Below, piece after piece: positions 4,273 to 24,946 of a stretch of DNA of 26,470 nt. This stretch comes from a virus (Duplodnaviria > Heunggongvirae > Uroviricota > Caudoviricetes), in the IMG/VR virus record IMGVR_UViG_2698536552_000007; one strand, given 5' to 3'. The notes under the pieces were generated by a model that was not told where the DNA came from, searched no databases, and worked only from the letters and a program-made list of their open reading frames with translations. The translations under genes and the position numbers were made by a program. Every line of letters begins with the position of its first letter. The stretch's first letter is position 1.

Positions 4273-4769
4273 TGCCTCCATCATTACGAAAAGTCGTTGC
4301 TGCTGCTATTGGTGGCGGAGCAATTGCTATAGCATCAGTGTTAATCACTGGCCCAAGTGGTAACGATGGTCTGGAAGGTGTCAGCTACATACCATACAAA
4401 GATATTGTTGGTGTATGGACTGTATGTCACGGGCATACAGGAAAAGACATCATGCTCGGTAAAACGTATACCAAAGCAGAATGCAAAACACTCTTGAATA
4501 AAGACCTTGCCACTGTCGCCAGACAAATTAACCCGTACATCAAAGTCGATATACCGGAAACAACGCGCGGCGCTCTTTACTCGTTCGTTTACAACGTGGG
4601 TGCTGGTAATTTCAGAACATCGACGCTTCTTCGCAAAATAAACCAGGGCGATATCAAAGGCGCATGTGATCAGCTACGTCGCTGGACATATGCTGGCGGT
4701 AAGCAATGGAAAGGTCTCATGACTCGTCGTGAGATTGAGCGTGAAATCTGTTTGTGGGGTCAGCAATGA
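4272..4769 (+). CDS. R: SAR endolysin (phage 21 R-like lysozyme)
   Basis: N-terminal Gly/Ala-rich signal-anchor-release segment ([20 protein letters not shown]) followed by a lysozyme-like domain. Sits directly after the pinholin, as in phage 21. Confidence 0.88.
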
Positions 4770-6962: not shown

Positions 6963-7751
6963 ATGAGCGAGAAATTAAAGATAGTCTATCGCCCATTACA
7001 AGAATTGTCACCGTATGCGCACAACGCCAGGACGCACAGTACTGAGCAGGTGGCACAACTGGTAGAAAGTATTAAGCAATTCGGCTGGACTAATCCGGTG
7101 CTGATTGACGAAAAGGGCGAAATTATTGCGGGTCACGGTCGTGTTATGGCGGCTGAAATGCTCAAAATGGATTCTGTTCCGGTCATTGTTCTGTCTGGCC
7201 TGACGGATGAGCAGAAAAAGGCGTACCGCCTGGCAGATAATCGCCTGCCGATGAATGCTGGCTGGGATGAAGATCTGTTGCGGATGGAGCTGTCGGACCT
7301 AATCAATGCTGATTTTGATGTCTCCCTGACAGGCTTCATCCCGGCAGAAATTGATGAACTGTTGACGGATGTTTTGCCCGGTACAGGAAATGAGGAGGAG
7401 CCGTATACGACGAAAATTGATACGCCTGTTTATGAGCCGTCAGGCGGTAAACCGGATATCAGTGAACTGTACGACGATACGAAAACTCAGGAGCTGATCA
7501 GCCGGATACGTTCGGCGTCCCTTGATCCTGATATTGAGAAATTCCTCCTGTGTGCAGCAGAACGTCACACGGTGTTTAATTTCAGCAGAATTGCGGACTA
7601 TTACGCTCATGCCCCCGCTGAAATTCAGTGCCTTTTCGAGGAGTCGGCGCTGGTGATCATTGATTATCAGCAGGCTATTGAAAATGGATTTGTCCGAATG
7701 ACGCAGCGCATGGTGGAGATCATGCATGGCGGGGAGGAGGAATATGCGTGA
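6963..7751 (+). CDS. ParB N-terminal (ParB/Srx-like nuclease) domain protein
   Basis: N-terminus KIVYRPLQELSPYAHNARTHS...NPVLIDEKGEIIAGHGRVMAAEML fits the ParB N-domain pattern, including the GxGR motif. C-terminal ~150 aa has unknown function. Its stop overlaps the start of the next gene. Confidence 0.8.
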   Translation: MSEKLKIVYRPLQELSPYAHNARTHSTEQVAQLVESIKQFGWTNPVLIDEKGEIIAGHGRVMAAEMLKMDSVPVIVLSGLTDEQKKAYRLADNRLPMNAGWDEDLLRMELSDLINADFDVSLTGFIPAEIDELLTDVLPGTGNEEEPYTTKIDTPVYEPSGGKPDISELYDDTKTQELISRIRSASLDPDIEKFLLCAAERHTVFNFSRIADYYAHAPAEIQCLFEESALVIIDYQQAIENGFVRMTQRMVEIMHGGEEEYA

Positions 7752-8676
7752 TGATTTTTGCGCCTTTATTCTGACTCACGGGCGACCGGACAAAGTTCTG
7801 ACTTACCGGACGTTGCGTCGTGCTGGCTATACCGGGAAAATTTTTATCGTTGTTGATGATGAAGATAAGACACGGCATCAGTACATGGCTGAATTTGGTG
7901 AACAGGTGCTGGTATTTTCCAAAGCCGATATTGCTAGTCGTTTTGACGAAGCCGATAATTTTAGTGACCGCCGCTCAATTTTTTACGCCCGTAATGCCTG
8001 TTTCGACCAGGCAAAACTGGTCGGGTGTAAATACTTCATTCAGCTCGATGATGATTATCACGAGTTCCAGTTTCGGGTGGATCGCAACTATGACCAGGCC
8101 TATTTCCCGATAAGGAAACTGGATGAGATCCTTTCTGAAATGCTTGCGTACTACGAATCAATACCTGCTCTTTCCATCGCTATGTCGCAGGGCGGGGATT
8201 TTCTTGGTGACAATGGCGGCCATGCTTCGTGGGTGAAACGCAAGGCAATGAACAGCTTTATCTGTTCGGTTGATCGACCGTTCTCATTCATGGGGCGCAT
8301 TAACGAGGATGTGAATACGTACACGAATCTCGGTCGCTGTGGTGAATTGTTTATGACGATCGGTGCTGTCCAGTTAGGGCAGAAACAGACGCAGAAAAAC
8401 AGCGGCGGAATGACCGAGCTGTATCTGGATTCCGGAACCTACGTTAAAAGTTTTTACTCCGTCATGTATGCGCCGTCGTGCGTAAAAATCTCACTTATGG
8501 GTGCCAGTCATAAACGCATTCACCATCAGGTCACCTGGAACAACGCTGCAGTAAAAATCCTTCACGAAAAATACAGGAAGAAGACACCCTGCATATCAAT
8601 GGGGGTGACAAATGATTCCGTATTCGAAAGTCGAGTCTCTGGCAGCGTGCCGGATGACTGCACAACAAATCGCTGA
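7726..8676 (+). CDS. putative soluble GT-A-fold glycosyltransferase-like protein (function uncertain); alternative start at 7744
   Basis: Beta-strand/acidic motifs typical of GT-A enzymes (FILTHGRPDKV...IFIVVDDEDK and, about 80 aa later, YFIQLDDDY as a DxD-like motif). No TM segments. ATG 7744 overlaps the ParB-like stop (7749..7751). Fold assignment is pattern-based only. Confidence 0.5.
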   Translation: MAGRRNMRDDFCAFILTHGRPDKVLTYRTLRRAGYTGKIFIVVDDEDKTRHQYMAEFGEQVLVFSKADIASRFDEADNFSDRRSIFYARNACFDQAKLVGCKYFIQLDDDYHEFQFRVDRNYDQAYFPIRKLDEILSEMLAYYESIPALSIAMSQGGDFLGDNGGHASWVKRKAMNSFICSVDRPFSFMGRINEDVNTYTNLGRCGELFMTIGAVQLGQKQTQKNSGGMTELYLDSGTYVKSFYSVMYAPSCVKISLMGASHKRIHHQVTWNNAAVKILHEKYRKKTPCISMGVTNDSVFESRVSGSVPDDCTTNR

Positions 8677-8863
8677 CGTTCTGGATGTTGATCTGAACCG
8701 ACTGAAAGAAAATCGGGAAGCAATGACAGATTTTTATGCGGCCATCCGTAAGGGCAGAGCGAAAGGTGAAGCCGAGTTACGAGCGGCATTGTTTAAGCTT
8801 GCCAGAAAAGGGGATGCCTTTGCTCTGCGCGAACTACTCAGGGTGGATAAAAATCAGGACTAA
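8612..8863 (+). CDS. small putative DNA-binding (HTH-like) protein upstream of terminase small subunit
   Basis: ORF with SD ggggg 6 nt upstream of the ATG; alternative ATG at 8654. Contains an HTH-like stretch (TAQQIADVLDVDLNRL). Overlaps the 3' end of the upstream gene in another frame. Confidence 0.45.
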   Translation: MIPYSKVESLAACRMTAQQIADVLDVDLNRLKENREAMTDFYAAIRKGRAKGEAELRAALFKLARKGDAFALRELLRVDKNQD

Positions 8864-8866
8864 CTG

Positions 8867-9961
8867 ATGAGCAGACCGGACTGGGGGGCGTTGCAGCAGG
8901 AGTATATTGCTGAATACACCCGCTCCGGTATATCTCCGGTGGCATGGTGTGAAGCAAGGGGACTGAATTACGCAACAGCCCGTCGTTACATCAAAAAAAC
9001 TCCGAAAAATGCGCAGACAGAAATGTGCAAAACTGCGCAAAAAAGTGCGCAGAAAAAATCTGCGCAGACTGCACAAAAGCGGAACGAAAAATCTCAGGAA
9101 AAAAAGCCAGTATTCGATGCGGGCCTGAATGAGGGCGACGCGGAGGAATTTTCGTTCTGTCCCGATGAATTCGGCATTTCTGACCAGCAGGCTAAGTTTG
9201 CGATGCTTGTTGCTCAGGGTAAAAAGCCGACAGAGGCGTACCGACTAGCCGGTTATGAGGGGCAAGGTGCGACAGCTAACAGCAACGCCAGTCGTATGCT
9301 TAGAAATGCCAGGGTTTTTCGCGCTATCAGCTACTTCCGCAATCAGTACCAGAAACGCTATACCGCAGACCTGGATTTACTAGTGAGTCAGTTGATGGCT
9401 ATTGTCCTGGCCGACCCCAATCAGCTTGCACAATTTCGCCGTGTTAACTGCCGTTATTGCTGGGGCGAGAATCATCTCTACCAGTGGCGCGATATAGCAG
9501 AATTCGACAAGGCAGCGGCGCAGGCTTCCAGAGATGGCAAACCCGAACCGGAATATGGAGGCCTCGGCTTTGTTGATAACGCCATACCCAATCCGGACTG
9601 CCCGAAGTGCTGCGGTGAGGGAACGGGACAGCTTTATATGGCTGATACCACTCTGCTTGATGGGGATGCGCGGCAATTATATGCAGGGGCAAAATTCGGA
9701 AAATTCGGCGTTGAGATCCTGCTGGAGGATAAGGCTGCCGCCCGGCGTGAATTGTTGCGTTTGTTTTCTGCTGGCGGGGCTTTATGTGCAGATAAGCGGC
9801 TACGGGAACTGGAAATTGAACGGCGCAGAATGGAAAACCAGAAGCTGCGCAAAGAGATCGAAACGGTGGAAGATAATGAACATCCCCAGCCTGTGGCGAT
9901 CAATATTAATGTGGTTGATGCCAGAGTAAGGAGTGATGAAGATGATCTCTCCGACGCTTAA
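8867..9961 (+). CDS. terminase small subunit (Terminase_2-like core with N-terminal HTH-like region and low-complexity AQK linker)
   Basis: Motif AYRLAGYEGQGATANSNASRMLRNARV matches the small-terminase signature as I recall it. Sits immediately upstream of the large terminase gene. Confidence 0.78.
   Translation: MSRPDWGALQQEYIAEYTRSGISPVAWCEARGLNYATARRYIKKTPKNAQTEMCKTAQKSAQKKSAQTAQKRNEKSQEKKPVFDAGLNEGDAEEFSFCPDEFGISDQQAKFAMLVAQGKKPTEAYRLAGYEGQGATANSNASRMLRNARVFRAISYFRNQYQKRYTADLDLLVSQLMAIVLADPNQLAQFRRVNCRYCWGENHLYQWRDIAEFDKAAAQASRDGKPEPEYGGLGFVDNAIPNPDCPKCCGEGTGQLYMADTTLLDGDARQLYAGAKFGKFGVEILLEDKAAARRELLRLFSAGGALCADKRLRELEIERRRMENQKLRKEIETVEDNEHPQPVAININVVDARVRSDEDDLSDA
9010..9075 (+). repeat. 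array of palindromic hexamer TGCGCA (4 exact, 2 one-off variants) with A-rich spacers inside the terminase small subunit gene
   Basis: TGCGCA at 9010, 9034, 9046, 9061; TGTGCA at 9024; TGCACA at 9070. Spacing is 9-15 bp. Encodes the low-complexity AQK linker. Confidence 0.4.
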
Positions 9962-11264
9962 TGTGCCTCAGGCGCGANNNNNNNNNNNNNNNNNNNNNNN
10001 NNNNNNNNNNNNNNNNNNNNNNNNNNNNNNNNNNNNNNNNNNNNNNNNNNNNNNNNNNNNNNNNNNNNNNNNNNNNNNNNNNNNNNNNNNNNNNNNNNNN
10101 NNNNNNNNNNNNNNNNNNNNNNNNNNNNNNNNNNNNNNNNNNNNNNNNNNNNNNNNNNNNNNNNNNNNNNNNNNNNNNNNNNNNNNNNNNNNNNNNNNNN
10201 NNNNNNNNNNNNNNNNNNNNNNNNNNNNNNNNNNNNNNNNNNNNCGCCAGTATCGGGGAACCACTATCTGCAGATCGATGGAGAAGCCACAAACGATCGT
10301 CGGTTTCAAAATTGGTAATGCGTTGGTGGATGAACTGGACATTTTGCCGAAGGAAAAAGCCAGAACGGCGTGGCGCAAGATAATTGCACGTATGCGTTAT
10401 AAGATTGATGGACTTCGCAACGGTATTGACGTTACAACCACGCCGGAAGGATTCAAATTTGTCTACGAGCAGTTTGTTAAAGCCGTGCGTGAAAAAACAG
10501 AGCTGGCCTCACTGTATGGTCTGGTGCAGGCATCTACTTTCGATAATGAAAAGAACCTGCCAGCAGATTACATTCCTTCGCTTCTTGAATCATACCCTCC
10601 AGAGCTGATTAAAGCCTATCTTCGAGGACAGTTTACTAACCTGACAAGTGGTACTGTTTACCATCAGTTTGACCGGAAACTGAATAATTGCGAAGAAGTG
10701 GAGCAGCCAGGGGAGCCGATTTATATTGGGATGGATTTTAACGTTGGAAAGATGGCGGGAATCGTCCATGTGCTGCGTTTGGGGCTTCCATGTGCGGTAA
10801 CTGAAATCATCAATGCCTACGATACGCCGGATATGATCCGCATCATTAAAGAACGCTTCTGGCTGTATGATGGGAATGATTACCGGAAAGTGAGGGAAAT
10901 TTATATTTATCCAGATGCTTCCGGGGATTCCAGAAAATCAAGTAACGCAAGTACGACGGATATAGCCCAGCTTAAGCAGGCTGGTTTTAACGTTGTGGTG
11001 AACAGCTCGAACCCGCCAGTAAAAGATCGCGTTAACTCAATGAATGCAATGTTCTGCAATGCCAATGGTGAGCGTCGCTATAAAGTTAATGTGAAGCGTT
11101 GCCCGTTATATGCCGAATCTCTGGAGCAACAGGTCTGGGATGAGAAGGGGGAGCCTGATAAAAAATCTGGCAATGATCACCCGAATGATGCCGGAGGTTA
11201 TTTCATCGTTAAGCAATTCCCTATTGTCAAACCGACCGGAAGAGTCACATCACTTCGGATTTAA
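9942..11264 (+). CDS. terminase large subunit (N-terminal region masked by N block 9978..10244)
   Basis: About 440-aa ORF following the small subunit and preceding the portal gene; SD aaggag 9 nt upstream of ATG 9942. The ATPase motifs are presumably inside the masked part; the call rests mainly on synteny and size. Confidence 0.75.
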   Translation: MISPTLNVPQARXXXXXXXXXXXXXXXXXXXXXXXXXXXXXXXXXXXXXXXXXXXXXXXXXXXXXXXXXXXXXXXXXXXXXXXXXXXXXXXXXXXXXXXXXRQYRGTTICRSMEKPQTIVGFKIGNALVDELDILPKEKARTAWRKIIARMRYKIDGLRNGIDVTTTPEGFKFVYEQFVKAVREKTELASLYGLVQASTFDNEKNLPADYIPSLLESYPPELIKAYLRGQFTNLTSGTVYHQFDRKLNNCEEVEQPGEPIYIGMDFNVGKMAGIVHVLRLGLPCAVTEIINAYDTPDMIRIIKERFWLYDGNDYRKVREIYIYPDASGDSRKSSNASTTDIAQLKQAGFNVVVNSSNPPVKDRVNSMNAMFCNANGERRYKVNVKRCPLYAESLEQQVWDEKGEPDKKSGNDHPNDAGGYFIVKQFPIVKPTGRVTSLRI

Positions 11265-18684: not shown

Positions 18685-19146
18685 ATGAGGTTATGGATGT
18701 TTATTCTTAATCAGAAAATTATCATTGGTGGAGAACGCTGGTTTACGCCAATGAAGGACTTAAAACCTGTAGACGGGTTAAAACTGTTGGTGGCAAGCAG
18801 CGATAACGATCAGTATCGCTCCCGTAATGCATTAATCCGTCGCCACATTGAGAAAATGGATGCCAGTTTGCACGTCGGAACGAAGGAGTTTGATATTTCA
18901 AAGGTTTCCGAGGTGGATTCTGTTGATGATTTACTCATTGATAATGCCGCTCGTTATCTGCTGAAAGACTGGAAAGGGGTTGGTGAACTGGTTAATGGTG
19001 TTGAGGTTGCACTGGAATATACGGCAGAACGAGGGATCGCGCTGCTTAAGCAGAATCCAGAGTTGTACTGGCAGATCCTTGCAGAAGCAGCCAGCATCGC
19101 CCAGGGTAAAGAGCAGCAGAAGCAGGATACGATAAAAAAGCCATAG
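18685..19146 (+). CDS. tail assembly chaperone (lambda G-like)
   Basis: Acidic ~150-aa protein ending at TAG 19144..19146, with a slippery heptamer A_AAA_AAG three codons before the stop and a -1 frame open downstream. Confidence 0.7.
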   Translation: MRLWMFILNQKIIIGGERWFTPMKDLKPVDGLKLLVASSDNDQYRSRNALIRRHIEKMDASLHVGTKEFDISKVSEVDSVDDLLIDNAARYLLKDWKGVGELVNGVEVALEYTAERGIALLKQNPELYWQILAEAASIAQGKEQQKQDTIKKP

Positions 19147-19619: not shown

Positions 19620-22600
19620 ATGGCAGAGCAAACCTCGCGTCTCGCAATAATTATTGATAGCACTGGAGCGAAAAATAATGCTGACAATCTGACCTCCTCA
19701 TTAGTCAAAATGACGCAGGCTGGGGAAACTGCTGCAANNNNNNNNNNNNNNNNNNNNNNNNNNNNNNNNNNNNNNNNNNNNNNNNNNNNNNNNNNNNNNN
19801 NNNNNNNNNNNNNNNNNNNNNNNNNNNNNNNNNNNNNNNNNNNNNNNNNNNNNNNNNNNNNNNNNNNNNNNNNNNNNNNNNNNNNNNNNNNNNNNNNNNN
19901 NNNNNNNNNNNNNNNNNNNNNNNNNNNNNNNNNNNNNNNNNNNNNNNNNNNNNNNNNNNNNNNNNNNNNNNNNNNNNNNNNNNNNNNCCGGAAAACTTGC
20001 TGCCGCCCAGCAGGAAGCGCAGGCTCAGGCCTTTCAAAGAATGCTGGACAAGATCGACCCTCTGGCTGCGGCGCTAAGAAATCTTGAACAACAGCATGAT
20101 GAACTTAATGCTGCGTTTGCATCCGGGAAAATAAATGGTTCTCAGTTTGAGAATTATAGCCGAAAAATACAGGAAACACGGCGAGAGCTTACCGGAGAGG
20201 CTCAGGCAGAGCGAGAAGCAGCAAAAGCGCATGATGAACAGGTTGTTGCTTTGCAACGTCTGATTGCTCAACTTGATCCTGTCGGAACTGCTTTTAATCG
20301 TCTGGTAGAACAACAGAAACAGCTCAATGAAGCAAAAGCTAAGGGGATGCTTTCTCCTGAAATGTATGAGGAGCTTTCTGGAAAACTTCGTGCTATGCGG
20401 AGTGAGCTTGAGGTTACTCAATCACAATTAAGCAAAACCGGAATGTCGGCAAAACAAACGGCTTTTGCTATGCGCATGTTGCCTGTACAAATGACGGATA
20501 TTGTTGTTGGGTTGTCCACTGGTCAGTCGCCATTTATGGTGTTAATGCAGCAGGGCGGCCAGCTAAAAGATATGTTCGGTGGGATTGGCCCGGCGATCAA
20601 AGGTGTAGGTTCTTATGTGCTGGGATTAATTAATCCTTTTACCCTGGCCGCAGCAGCCGTTGGGGTCTTAGGACTGGCTTACTATAAAGGCTCTCAGGAG
20701 CAGGACGAATTTAATAAATCTCTTATTCTTACCGGAAATCAGTTGGGGACAACCAGCGGGCAATTGGGCGATATAGCTCAACGTGCCGGGAATGCGGCTG
20801 ATTCGACAACTGGTGCTGCGGCGGCAGTATTAAATCAGCTTGTGCGTTCGGGAAAGGTAGCGAGCAGTTCGCTGGAGCAAGTGACGACAGCGATAGTAAA
20901 AACGAGCGAAGTAACAGGAATATCAACCGAACAACTGGTTAATGACTTCAATGAAATTGCAAAGGATCCTGTCAGTGCCATATCAAAACTTAATGATCAG
21001 TACCATTTTCTGACACTTGCGACTTATAACCAGATTAAGGCGCTACAGGATGAAGGGAACCAGCAGGAGGCCGCCCGCATTGCGACAGAAGAATACTCAT
21101 CCTCAATGATCCAGCGCACCAACCAGATTAAAGAAAATCTTGGTTATCTTGAGACTGCATGGAAAGCTGTCGCAGACTCCGCAAAATGGGCATGGGATTC
21201 CATGCTGGATATTGGCCGTGAGGCCTCCCTTGATCAAAAAATCTCAGATGTTCTCCGTCAAATTGATGAAATAGAAAAAAATACCCGACCCGGAGTTTTC
21301 GGGTTAGGTGGCATTGGAGATGGCGGAGCTCAAAATAAAAGGCTGGCACGATTAAAGCAGCAATTGGGCGTACTTCAAGCAGAAAAAATTGCTCAGGACG
21401 TACTAAATTCATCAATAAACGATTACAACAAGCGACAACAGGAAGGAATTGAACTCAGACAGAGAGCAGATGCCTTTTCAAAACAATATCAGACCCGGGA
21501 GCAGCAGAGAGCTAGTGAACTTGCAAAACTGGAAAAGCTAAAGAATCAGTATTCAAAGGAAGAATATAATAATCTTATCGCTCAAATAAATGAGCGTTAT
21601 AAAGATCCAAAGCAACCAAAGGCGAAAGGTTATTCTGATGATGCAGCCCAACGAATGATTGATCATCTGAATCAACAGAATGCGTTACTAAGTTCACAAG
21701 CTGAGTTGACCGTTAAATTAAGTTCCTCTGAACAGGAACTGGTTAAGTGGCGTCAGCGGATTGCCGACCTAGAGTCACGACCATCATCGAAATTAACCCA
21801 GGATCAGAAATCGCTTCTCTTACACCGGGAAGAAATAACCACGTTGATGGAGAAAAATGTTGCGATTGAAAAAAATAACAGGCTAATCAAGGAATCCGCC
21901 GAAATAACAGCATGGCGTGATTCATTGCAGGCTTCGATTGATAATCGTCAGCAGGGGTATGATATTCAGATTGCTGGTTATGGGGTTGGCGATAAAAATC
22001 AGCAACGCCAGCAGGAATTACTGCGGATTGAACATGGATATAACAATCAGCGTCTGCAACTTGAACGTGACTATGCAGATAAATCCCGTGGAATGTCAGA
22101 TCATGTTTTTCAAGAGAAAATGCAGGCTCTGAATGATGCTCTGGAACGGGAAAAAGAAATTGTCAGACAGAAAAACGAGCAGCTCGATATTCAGGCAGGA
22201 GACTGGGTTAGTGGTGCCTCCCAGGGATTCAATAACTGGCTGGATGACACTAAGGATATCAGTGAGCAGATAAAATCAACCACGACTCAGATGTTTGATG
22301 GGATGACCGATGCGCTGGGTGATTTTGTCACGACAGGCAAGGCAAATTTTCGTTCTTTCGCTACTTCCGTGATTTCGGATCTTAGTCGAATAGCATTAAA
22401 GGCTTCAATTACTGGGATTTTCGACAGCATTAGTAACAGTTCTTCTGGGGGGATTTTAGGAACTATCGGGAGTGCTATTAGTAAATTTATTCCGAATGCA
22501 AAGGGCGGTGTTTATGAGTCTCCGTCATTGAGCACGTATTCGAACGGTATTTATGATTCCCCGCAATTTTTTGCTTTTGCAAAAGGGGCTGGTGTTTTTG

Positions 22601-23191: not shown

Positions 23192-23889
23192 TGCAGGACA
23201 TACAACAGGAAACGCTGAATGAATGCATTCGTGCGGAGCAGTCGGCCAGCGTGGTGCTCTGGGAAATCGACCTGACCGAGGTAGGCGGGGATCGCTACTT
23301 TTTCTGCAATGAGCAGAACGAGAAAGGAGAGTCTGTCACCTGGCAGAGTCGGCAGTATCAGGCCTATCCCATTCAGGGGAGTGGATTTGAGATGAACGGC
23401 AAAGGTGCCAGTGCAAGGCCAACGCTGAAAGTCTCTAATCTGCACGGCATGGTCACCGGGATGGCGGAAGACCTGCAGAGTCTGGTCGGCGGAACGGTGG
23501 TCAGGCGTAAGGTTTACGCCCGTTTTCTGGATGCGGTGAACTTCGTCAACGGAAACAGTGACGCCGATCCGGAGCAGGAGGTGATCAGCCGCTGGCGTAT
23601 TGAGCAGTGCAGCGAACTGAGCGCGGTCAGTGCCTCCTTTGTACTGTCCACGCCGACGGAAACGGACGGCGCTGTTTTTCCGGGGCGCATCATGCTTGCT
23701 AATACCTGCACCTGGACCTATCGCGGTGATGAGTGCGGTTATCACGGTCCGGCTGTCGCGGATGAATATGACCAGCCAACGTCCGATATCACGAAGGATA
23801 AATGCAGCAAATGCCTGAGNNNNNNNNNNNNNNNNNNNNNNNNNNNNNNNNNNNNNNNNNNNNNNNNNNNNNNNNNNNNNNNNNNNNNN
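23191..23889 (+). CDS. L: minor tail protein L (3' end inside N block 23820..24105; end estimated)
   Basis: Visible 209 aa are almost identical to lambda gpL as I recall it ([12 protein letters not shown]...TCTWTYRGDECGY...DKCSKCL). End estimated from lambda L length. Confidence 0.85.
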
Positions 23890-24093
23890 NNNNNNNNNNN
23901 NNNNNNNNNNNNNNNNNNNNNNNNNNNNNNNNNNNNNNNNNNNNNNNNNNNNNNNNNNNNNNNNNNNNNNNNNNNNNNNNNNNNNNNNNNNNNNNNNNNN
24001 NNNNNNNNNNNNNNNNNNNNNNNNNNNNNNNNNNNNNNNNNNNNNNNNNNNNNNNNNNNNNNNNNNNNNNNNNNNNNNNNNNNNNNNNNNNNN

Positions 24094-24946
24094 NNNNNNN
24101 NNNNNAGACAGAATCAGCGATTCTGGCGCACGCCCGGCGATGTGCGCCAGCGGAGTCGTGCGGCTTCGTGGTGAGAACGCCGGAGGGGGAAAGATATTTT
24201 CCCTGCGTGAATATCTCCGGTGAGCCGGAGGATTATTTCCGGATGTCGCCGGAGGACTGGCTGCAGGCAGAAATGCAGGGTGAGATTGTGGCGCTGGTCC
24301 ACAGCCACCCCGGTGGTCTGCCCTGGCTGAGTGAGGCCGACCGGCGGCTGCAGGTGCAGAGTGATTTGCCGTGGTGGCTGGTCTGCCGGGGGGCGATTCA
24401 TAAGTTCCGCTGTGTGCCGCATCTCACCGGGCGGCGCTTTGAGCACGGGGTGACGGACTGTTACACGCTGTTCCGGGACGCTTACCATCTGGCGGGNNNN
24501 NNNNNNNNNNNNNNNNNNNNNNNNNNNNNNNNNNNNNNNNNNNNNNNNNNNNNNNNNNNNNNNNNNNNNNNNNNNNNNNNNNNNNNNNNNNNNNNNNNNN
24601 NATTGAGATGCCAGATTTTCATCGTGAGGACGACTGGTGGCGTAACGGCCAGAATCTCTATCTTGATAATCTGGAGGCCACAGGGCTGTATCAGGTGCCG
24701 TTGTCAGCGGCGCAGCCGGGCGATGTGCTGCTGTGCTGTTTTGGTTCATCGGTGCCGAATCATGCCGCCATTTACTGTGGTGACGGCGAGCTGCTGCACC
24801 ATATTCCTGAACAACTGAGCAAACGAGAGAGGTACACCGACAAATGGCAGCGACGCACACACTCCCTCTGGCGTCACCGGGCATGGCACGCATCTGCCTT
24901 TACGGGGATTTGCAGCGATTTGGCCGCCGCATCGACCTTCGTGTGA
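24094..24946 (+). CDS. K: tail assembly protein K (start inside N block; also interrupted by N block 24498..24601)
   Basis: TESAILAHARRCAPAESCGFVV...HSHPGG (JAB/MPN-like) before the second N block and IEMPDFHREDDWW...CCFGSSVPNHAAIYCGDGELLHH (NlpC/P60-like) after it. The frame changes across the mask. 3' end overlaps the I start. Confidence 0.75.

Follow-up and report, generated by a model that had tools for sequence, protein, structure and literature searches.

Packaging (pac) sites are known for a handful of phages and usually need experimental mapping, and that of phage ES18 is still unknown (PMC11260489). In phage P1, pac is a segment of 161 bp with seven hexamers; it is controlled by methylation, and synonymous recoding lowers packaging (PMC10028697). 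In Bacillus phage SPP1 (pacL-pacC-pacR, G1P), pac overlaps the 5' end of the small terminase gene, the small terminase subunit (TerS) binds repeated boxes, and the large subunit (TerL) cuts nearby (PMC6316719). P22, an enterobacterial headful phage, carries its packaging signal inside its small terminase gene, gene 3 (PMC11260489). Here we describe an array of six TGCGCA hexamers, exact or with one mismatch, at positions 9010-9075 of a stretch of 26,470 nucleotides (IMG/VR record IMGVR_UViG_2698536552_000007; the whole stretch is called the window), which is an intact-looking Rac-type lambdoid prophage of Escherichia coli. The array lies inside the TerS gene and, at a probability that we put at roughly three in four on comparative sequence analysis, is the recognition part of this prophage's putative pac site.

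The locus shares something with each of these systems. As in P22, the putative signal is embedded in the small terminase gene; P22 pac is a single asymmetric site of about 22 bp with no repeat array, and the fold of its TerS is unrelated. As in SPP1, TerS belongs to the Terminase_2 family (PF03592, E 3.8e-8). Unlike the TerS of the window, SPP1 G1P has no extra N-terminal domain of the P1 PacA type and uses different boxes, and SPP1 pac overlaps the promoter and the region coding for the DNA-binding domain, whereas the window array lies in a linker. The likeness to P1 is of several kinds: in both systems the site is in the 5' part of the small terminase gene, 3' of the segment coding for a helix-turn-helix (HTH) domain; in both it is a cluster of TG-NN-CA hexamers 7-15 bp apart in the linker-coding DNA just past that domain (gene positions 194-233 in P1 and 144-209 here); and in both the reading frames are mixed, with a codon layout of xxT GAT CAx in P1 and of xxT GCG CAx here. 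Unlike in P1, the body of TerS is a Terminase_2 domain unrelated to PacA, TerL is by family assignment of the Terminase_6N/6C type, and the element that carries the locus is not a plasmid myovirus but a lambdoid Rac-type siphovirus prophage. The array is most likely a P1-type pac recognition array without the Dam sites, the second arm and the integration host factor (IHF) consensus, set on a Terminase_2 scaffold.

Six hexamers in the linker-coding segment of the TerS gene

The Terminase_2 match covers TerS residues 122-321 and lies over the gathering score, the whole protein matches phrog_51 'terminase small subunit' (E 7e-75), and the RefSeq annotation is likewise 'terminase small subunit'. 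The original prediction had placed the array inside a small terminase gene, and the assignment of 8867-9961 bears this out. The gene and its parts are as follows, where pLDDT is the predicted local distance difference test score of AlphaFold2.

8867-9961, + strand: TerS gene, 364 amino acids: an HTH at the N-terminus, then a disordered Lys-rich linker, then a Terminase_2 body with a four-Cys insertion
8867-9001, + strand: segment coding for the PacA-type N-terminal HTH (residues 1-45), from AlphaFold2, hhalign and phrog_1711
8969-8995, + strand: predicted recognition helix Y35-A-T-A-R-R-Y-I-K43, with the codon of R39 at 8981-8983, from co-variation
9002-9166, + strand: linker-coding segment (residues 46-100), which carries the array; residues 44-94 have a pLDDT below 50
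9230-9829, + strand: Terminase_2 body, a second and canonical DNA-binding and oligomerisation region with the CRYC...CPKC cysteines, from Pfam

The array occupies gene positions 144-209, after the HTH (residues 1-45), and reads TGCGCAgacagaaa TGTGCAaaac TGCGCAaaaaag TGCGCAgaaaaaatc TGCGCAgac TGCACA. Four exact copies of TGCGCA (9010, 9034, 9046 and 9061) and two with one mismatch (TGTGCA at 9024 and TGCACA at 9070) span 66 bp, with start-to-start spacings of 14, 10, 12, 15 and 9 bp; the copy count first proposed is thus correct, as are the start and end coordinates, which match the first and the last copy.

9010-9015: hexamer 1, TGCGCA (AAT GCG CAG), invariant in 51 unique relatives
9024-9029: hexamer 2, decayed to TGTGCA; most relatives have TGCGCA, in another frame (ATG CGC AAA, M-R-K)
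9034-9039: hexamer 3, TGCGCA (ACT GCG CAA)
9046-9051: hexamer 4, TGCGCA (AGT GCG CAG)
9061-9066: hexamer 5, TGCGCA (TCT GCG CAG)
9070-9075: hexamer 6, decayed to TGCACA; TGCGCA in about half of the relatives

Across the same 51 unique relatives, hexamer 2 carries a C/T polymorphism at gene position 160 and hexamer 6 a G/A polymorphism at gene position 207, the latter dividing the sequences 25 to 26. The C-to-T decay of the two hexamers could suggest deamination of 5-methylcytosine, on a polymorphism spectrum too small to say.

The clustering of the hexamers is non-random. TGCGCA occurs 11 times in the 26.5-kb window against a shuffle mean of 10.6, so that the total is ordinary and the clustering is not: when 11 sites were placed uniformly in 200,000 trials, four never fell within 57 bp (P<5e-6), and three did so in 0.19% of the trials. 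Three other spots of the window hold some hexamer four times per 100 bp (CATACA/TGTATG, AAGCAG and CCGGAG, at 4341-4450, 19031-19140 and 24161-24270), and these clusters have irregular spacing and no comparative support. Over 572 sites in relatives, the flanks follow the consensus AAA-C-TGCGCA-R-A, A-rich on both sides. Each copy had originally been described as followed by an A-run; the A-rich flanks hold, and on both sides, but of the six window copies only three are directly followed by four or more A.

Just 3' of the array is a 12-nt inverted repeat (9082-9093 and 9146-9157; GAACGAAAAATC and GAATTTTCGTTC), which is 92% complementary and pairs less well in relatives. Its centre is about 45 bp past the last hexamer, roughly the position of the P1 cut relative to the left arm of P1 pac.

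Conservation of the hexamers as DNA

Depending on its frame, the hexamer codes for x-A-Q, M/L/V-R or C-A. In the window the four exact copies share one frame (xxT GCG CAr) and encode x-A-Q, E. coli copies of the array differ by unit-sized indels, and the linker is disordered, observations which would fit hexamers that do no more than mirror, as DNA, a low-complexity Ala-Gln-Lys linker, multiplied by codon-slippage duplication and without a function as DNA. The comparison of relatives makes such an origin extremely improbable. In close relatives both decayed copies are exact TGCGCA, which gives an ancestral array of six copies, and copy 2 is out of frame with the other five. Among 106 unique genes with an A-R-R-Y recognition helix (ARRY-type), with 3-8 copies of TGCGCA per gene and a mean of 5.4, the 572 hexamers divide into 446 read as xxT-GCG-CAx, 93 as xTG-CGC-Axx and 33 as TGC-GCA. 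Homologues from Superficieibacter, Serratia and Buttiauxella (52-55% amino acid identity) have four to five exact copies in the same place, as do arrays of Klebsiella and E. coli PHB10-type phages (about 34-37% identity) and those of Aeromonas phages and metagenomic relatives, where the common part is the first ~45 residues and up to 8 copies are found. The three enterobacterial genera, the Klebsiella phages and Aeromonas retain 4-7 copies. In these distant homologues the hexamers stand in three frames within linker peptides that cannot be aligned, so that the hexamer is kept where the peptide differs.

The synonymous-site comparison called for by the original prediction was run, and it shows the hexamers held at the level of DNA and the linker peptide not. 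When the linker of each lineage was resampled with synonymous codons, the mean was 0.2-0.7 copies, where 3-9 are observed (P<=6e-4 for every one of 14 lineages), which makes the hexamer 10-20 times commoner than such resampling allows. Among 51 unique E. coli-type genes, 17% of the hexamer columns are polymorphic and 13% of those in the HTH part, compared with 55% in the adjacent linker and 56% of third codon positions elsewhere; gene positions 210-330 are the most polymorphic part of the gene (55% of columns), and inside the hexamers only 2 of 12 third codon positions vary. Moreover, where relatives have another HTH type their repeats differ too, and stand in both orientations, as described below. 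Taken together, these comparisons indicate that the array is selected at the DNA level and that the Ala-Gln-Lys 'linker repeat' is the protein shadow of the site array and not the reverse; frame usage, synonymous resampling and the conserved third positions leave the mere-linker half of the first proposal without a footing, and with the PacA-type HTH they support its other half, that of a pac or terminase-binding site.

Several odd loci were seen in this comparison. In phage Rac-SA53 (1412-2440) the annotation gives TerS as a gpO-TerS deletion fusion, homology to the window starts inside the array (at about window position 9019), and two of five hexamers are still exact, a decay that fits relaxed selection in a defective prophage. 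In the metagenome contig ERZ773156 NODE-684 the array has grown to 8 TGCGCA (AQTAQTAQTAQTAQKSAQKK), and resolvase-like sequence follows where the TerS body would be. Many database 'proteins' of 44-84 amino acids are TerS N-termini that shift frame within the A-runs of the array; a frameshift hotspot in these A-runs was considered and rejected, truncation being rare in actual loci (2 of ~114).

The N-terminal domain, P1 PacA and the identity of the repeat

The array adjoins an HTH of the PacA type. AlphaFold2 predicts helices at residues 6-20, 24-31 and 35-~43 (pLDDT about 85) in the N-terminal domain; the model of full-length TerS is poor (mean pLDDT 49), and sequence and profile searches of the PDB with the N-terminal domain returned nothing. 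In hhalign, this domain aligns to residues 1-57 of P1 PacA with a probability of 92.7% (E 4.4e-7) over 39 ungapped columns, the two sharing W-x31-TARRY, and residues 6-80 of TerS match phrog_1711, the PacA family (E 3.8e-5). On this profile evidence the N-terminal HTH of TerS is homologous to the N-terminus of P1 PacA; beyond residue ~45, TerS and PacA are unrelated. The P1 hexamers, TGATCA/G, are found at pacA positions 194, 201, 213 and 228 (194-233) and 324, 336 and 347 (324-352), on either side of the IHF site and of the pac cleavage sites that the P1 record annotates. P1 had first been named as an analogy for this locus, and a homologous reader domain next to mapped hexamers at the equivalent place in pacA makes it more than an analogy.

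A relative of P1 illustrates the same relation between site and peptide. The PacA of Cronobacter phage JK004 (70% identical to that of P1) has its hexamers at the P1 positions, although its linker peptide has become NDQKRDQKKRDQ; this peptide, KAPNDQKRDQKKRDQ, is the direct analogue of TAQKSAQKKSAQ in the window, and T GAT CAA AAG (D-Q-K) in JK004 is the exact counterpart of T GCG CAA AAG (A-Q-K) here. That JK004 keeps the P1 hexamers under a changed peptide again makes the Ala-Gln-Lys repeat a shadow of the sites.

An HTH bound to hexamers in the 5' part of its own gene might serve chiefly to autoregulate terS and the late operon and not to start packaging; the TerS of SPP1 both starts packaging at pac and represses its own synthesis (PMC6316719), so that the two roles can coexist. 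Since in P1 both the processing of pac and packaging require the homologous hexamers (PMC10028697) and the domain is found only on terminase small subunits, we consider regulation as the chief role unlikely.

The identity of the repeat changes with the HTH. Genes with an A-R-R-Y helix (106 unique) have a mean of 5.4 TGCGCA and 0.01 TGCGAA, and those with an A-K-R-Y helix (8 unique, from Yersinia, Providencia, Klebsiella RothC and Pasteurella) a mean of 7.1 TGCGAA/TTCGCA and 0.6 TGCGCA. In the alignment, residue 39 is R in all seven TGCGCA lineages and K in all four TGCGAA lineages, from which we infer that helix residue 39 is tied to the identity of the hexamer. The linkers differ as well: among library representatives, those of the R type are AQ/AH-rich in 49 of 68 cases and AN-rich in none, those of the K type AN-rich in 7 of 13 and AQ-rich in none. 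Two more HTH types of this superfamily occur on the same kind of TerS body; they are related by homology to one another (97%, E 2e-11) and, at a greater distance, to the PacA type (88% and 50%). Their arrays, in the same place, consist of blocks of GTTTCCAC then GTGGAAAC, or of GGGGCAAAA then TGCCCCAAAA (GGGGCA/TGCCCC), with repeats in both orientations. The arrays of the further HTH types are kept across homologues 41-64% identical and greatly exceed the synonymous expectation (P<=4e-4).

TerS homologues without the extra N-terminal domain (F116, Bcep22, Acinetobacter and Collimonas) have no repeat cluster, and the repeats follow the extra PacA-type domain and not the Terminase_2 domain. Domain and array occur together on at least four TerS scaffolds (phrog_51, phrog_370, phrog_32222 and phrog_1711). 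We somewhat favor the view that HTH and array form a portable cassette of reader plus address, which would have moved among at least four unrelated TerS scaffolds, in P1 and in Rac-type, Klebsiella, Pasteurella and Aeromonas phages, and would have been re-specified repeatedly (TGATCA, TGCGCA, TGCGAA, GTGGAAAC and GGGGCA), with one switch following one residue (R39 with C at hexamer position 5, K39 with A). If so, packaging specificity would follow a natural, readable code, and one could predict pac sites and transduction compatibility from sequence alone. For neither this family's site nor the cassette was an earlier description found in the literature searched, the coverage of which was incomplete.

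The sister arrays also bear on whether the hexamers could be targets of restriction or methylation, or of DNA modification by the products of adjacent genes. TGCGCA is palindromic, is an FspI site and contains GCGC; genes for a ParB_N protein and a TET-associated-type glycosyltransferase (TAGT) lie directly upstream, and P1 pac is under methylation control. The sister arrays, by contrast, are non-palindromic (TGCGAA, GTGGAAAC and GGGGCA) and follow the HTH type, not the neighbors, and many array-bearing phages have no TAGT neighbor. Furthermore, neither a TET/JBP gene nor a DNA methyltransferase gene is annotated in the same prophage in E. coli strain EC2. Given the non-palindromic sister arrays and a prophage in which no methyltransferase or TET gene is annotated, methylation or modification was rejected as the leading explanation, and we regard it as very unlikely.

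A close parallel is found in the PHB10-type prophages of Klebsiella and E. coli (e.g., ST846-OXA48phi9.2), whose TerS has the ARRY helix and TGCGCA as in the window (TerL is 85% identical) and in whose TerS genes six copies lie at positions 138-196. A second cluster, of ~2-3 TGCGCA at positions 330-420, makes this lineage bipartite like P1, whereas the window lineage has none. The second cluster of the Klebsiella lineage is ~165 bp downstream of the first; its copies are at gene positions 360, 372 and 398 in two Klebsiella phages and at 348 and 360 in a further locus, in differing frames.

The TerS body has a feature of its own: the four-Cys motif CRYC...CPKC (window about 9452-9620, residues ~195-250) is conserved in distant homologues from Acinetobacter, Collimonas and F116-type phages and is probably a zinc-ribbon insertion.

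Packaging mode, mechanism and the prophage

Downstream of TerS, the gene order is TerL (Terminase_6N/6C), a DUF4055 portal, a Mu-F-like protein and a P22-type coat protein, and TerL is presumed to be the nuclease/ATPase partner of TerS.

9933-11264, + strand: TerL gene, with Terminase_6N (E 3.6e-33) and Terminase_6C (E 2.7e-10), determined on an unmasked copy

By family assignment this head module, with its Terminase_6 TerL, Mu-F-like protein and P22-type coat, belongs to the type usual in headful phages. The relatives of TerL are mainly siphoviruses, e.g., Kagunavirus and Salmonella/Escherichia phages. Phages with cohesive ends (cos) too have multi-site TerS-binding arrays beside their terminase genes, such as the R sites of lambda cosB, and the array might accordingly be a cosB-type binding site in a phage that packages unit genomes from cohesive ends. 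The reader domain is homologous to that of a headful phage, P1, TerL is of the Terminase_6N/6C type, a Mu-F-like head protein with a P22-type coat is typical of headful modules, and F116, a transducing phage, is among the relatives of the TerS body; against these, a cosB-type site appears distinctly improbable, if slightly less so than a target of modification.

We thus return to the array as the recognition part of a putative pac site. The extra N-terminal HTH of TerS would sit on a long, disordered, Lys-rich tether, and several HTHs of one TerS oligomer could dock in a multivalent manner on the TGCGCA hexamers, which are 9-15 bp apart and flanked by A-tracts. Such docking would mark phage concatemers for TerL, which would cut nearby and start packaging, probably by the headful mode and probably in the terS-to-terL direction. 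The binding of the HTH to the hexamers, the cleavage directed by it, the headful mode and the direction are what we infer from these comparisons. The sites would be encoded in the otherwise unconstrained linker of their own reader, and reader and site would therefore travel together as one cassette of roughly 200 bp.

Several observations weigh against this reading or parts of it. In Foldseek, the best matches of the N-terminal domain were all HTH domains and none was significant. HTH and repeats are adjacent and co-inherited, and their co-variation is therefore partly linkage, with about four independent switches. P1 too has the TARRY helix core, yet its hexamer is TGATCA, and residue 39 alone thus does not set specificity. 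Unlike P1, the center of the hexamer is CG and not AT, so that TGCGCA holds no Dam GATC and no methylation switch is expected. Unlike P1, with 4+3 hexamers around the cut, the window lineage has a single arm: in 37 unique Rac-type genes, about 5 hexamers fall at positions 120-210 and practically none at 210-720. The IHF consensus WATCAANNNNTTR has no match with up to one mismatch in 8800-9500, a consensus scan being a weak test. The exact copy number varies from 4 to 6 among E. coli copies by unit indels and single copies decay, two of them here, and 19 of the 68 R-type representative proteins have no AQ-rich linker. Finally, at least one host copy of the prophage, that of strain EC2, contains several pseudogenes, and the site may be out of use in that copy.

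Literature searches found no virion-end data; a Yersinia phage paper carries none on packaging. If the reading is true, it would provide a pac signature that can be read from sequence, for a prophage family that ~17% of complete E. coli genomes carry and that is tied by homology to the P1 paradigm, and this signature would extend to relatives in Klebsiella, Yersinia, Pasteurella and Aeromonas. The natural specificity variants would serve as test material for the reading of DNA by small terminases, and the signature would help to predict which terminase packages which prophages, satellites and plasmids and to design or disable phagemid packaging signals.

Of 5,426 complete E. coli genomes, 906 contain the segment itself. 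Its neighbors in strain EC2 are the Rac genes trkG and ynaK on one side and tail genes on the other, and the prophage there is integrated beside ttcA/intR. The near-identical records labelled as 'phage' (ON4705xx) are prophages predicted in silico in clinical isolates. The window is masked by seven stretches of N, each of 105-286 bases, at 683-932, 1282-1531, 2124-2388, 9978-10244, 19738-19987, 23820-24105 and 24497-24601; the run at 9978-10244 hides the 5' part of the TerL gene, and 3' of it the coordinates of the window and of the EC2 copy, which is otherwise identical, differ by 21 bp.

Upstream of the terminase genes, the ParB_N-domain protein (ynaK) is encoded at 6963-7751 and adjoins the TET-associated-type glycosyltransferase at 7726-8676 (PF20691, E 4e-34; RefSeq name 'GREB1-related protein'). 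Between the latter and terS is a small open reading frame at 8612-8863 (RefSeq start 8654), which matches phrog_309 'terminase small subunit' (E 8e-23) over profile positions 145-218 of 319 and may be an extra packaging accessory or HTH protein.

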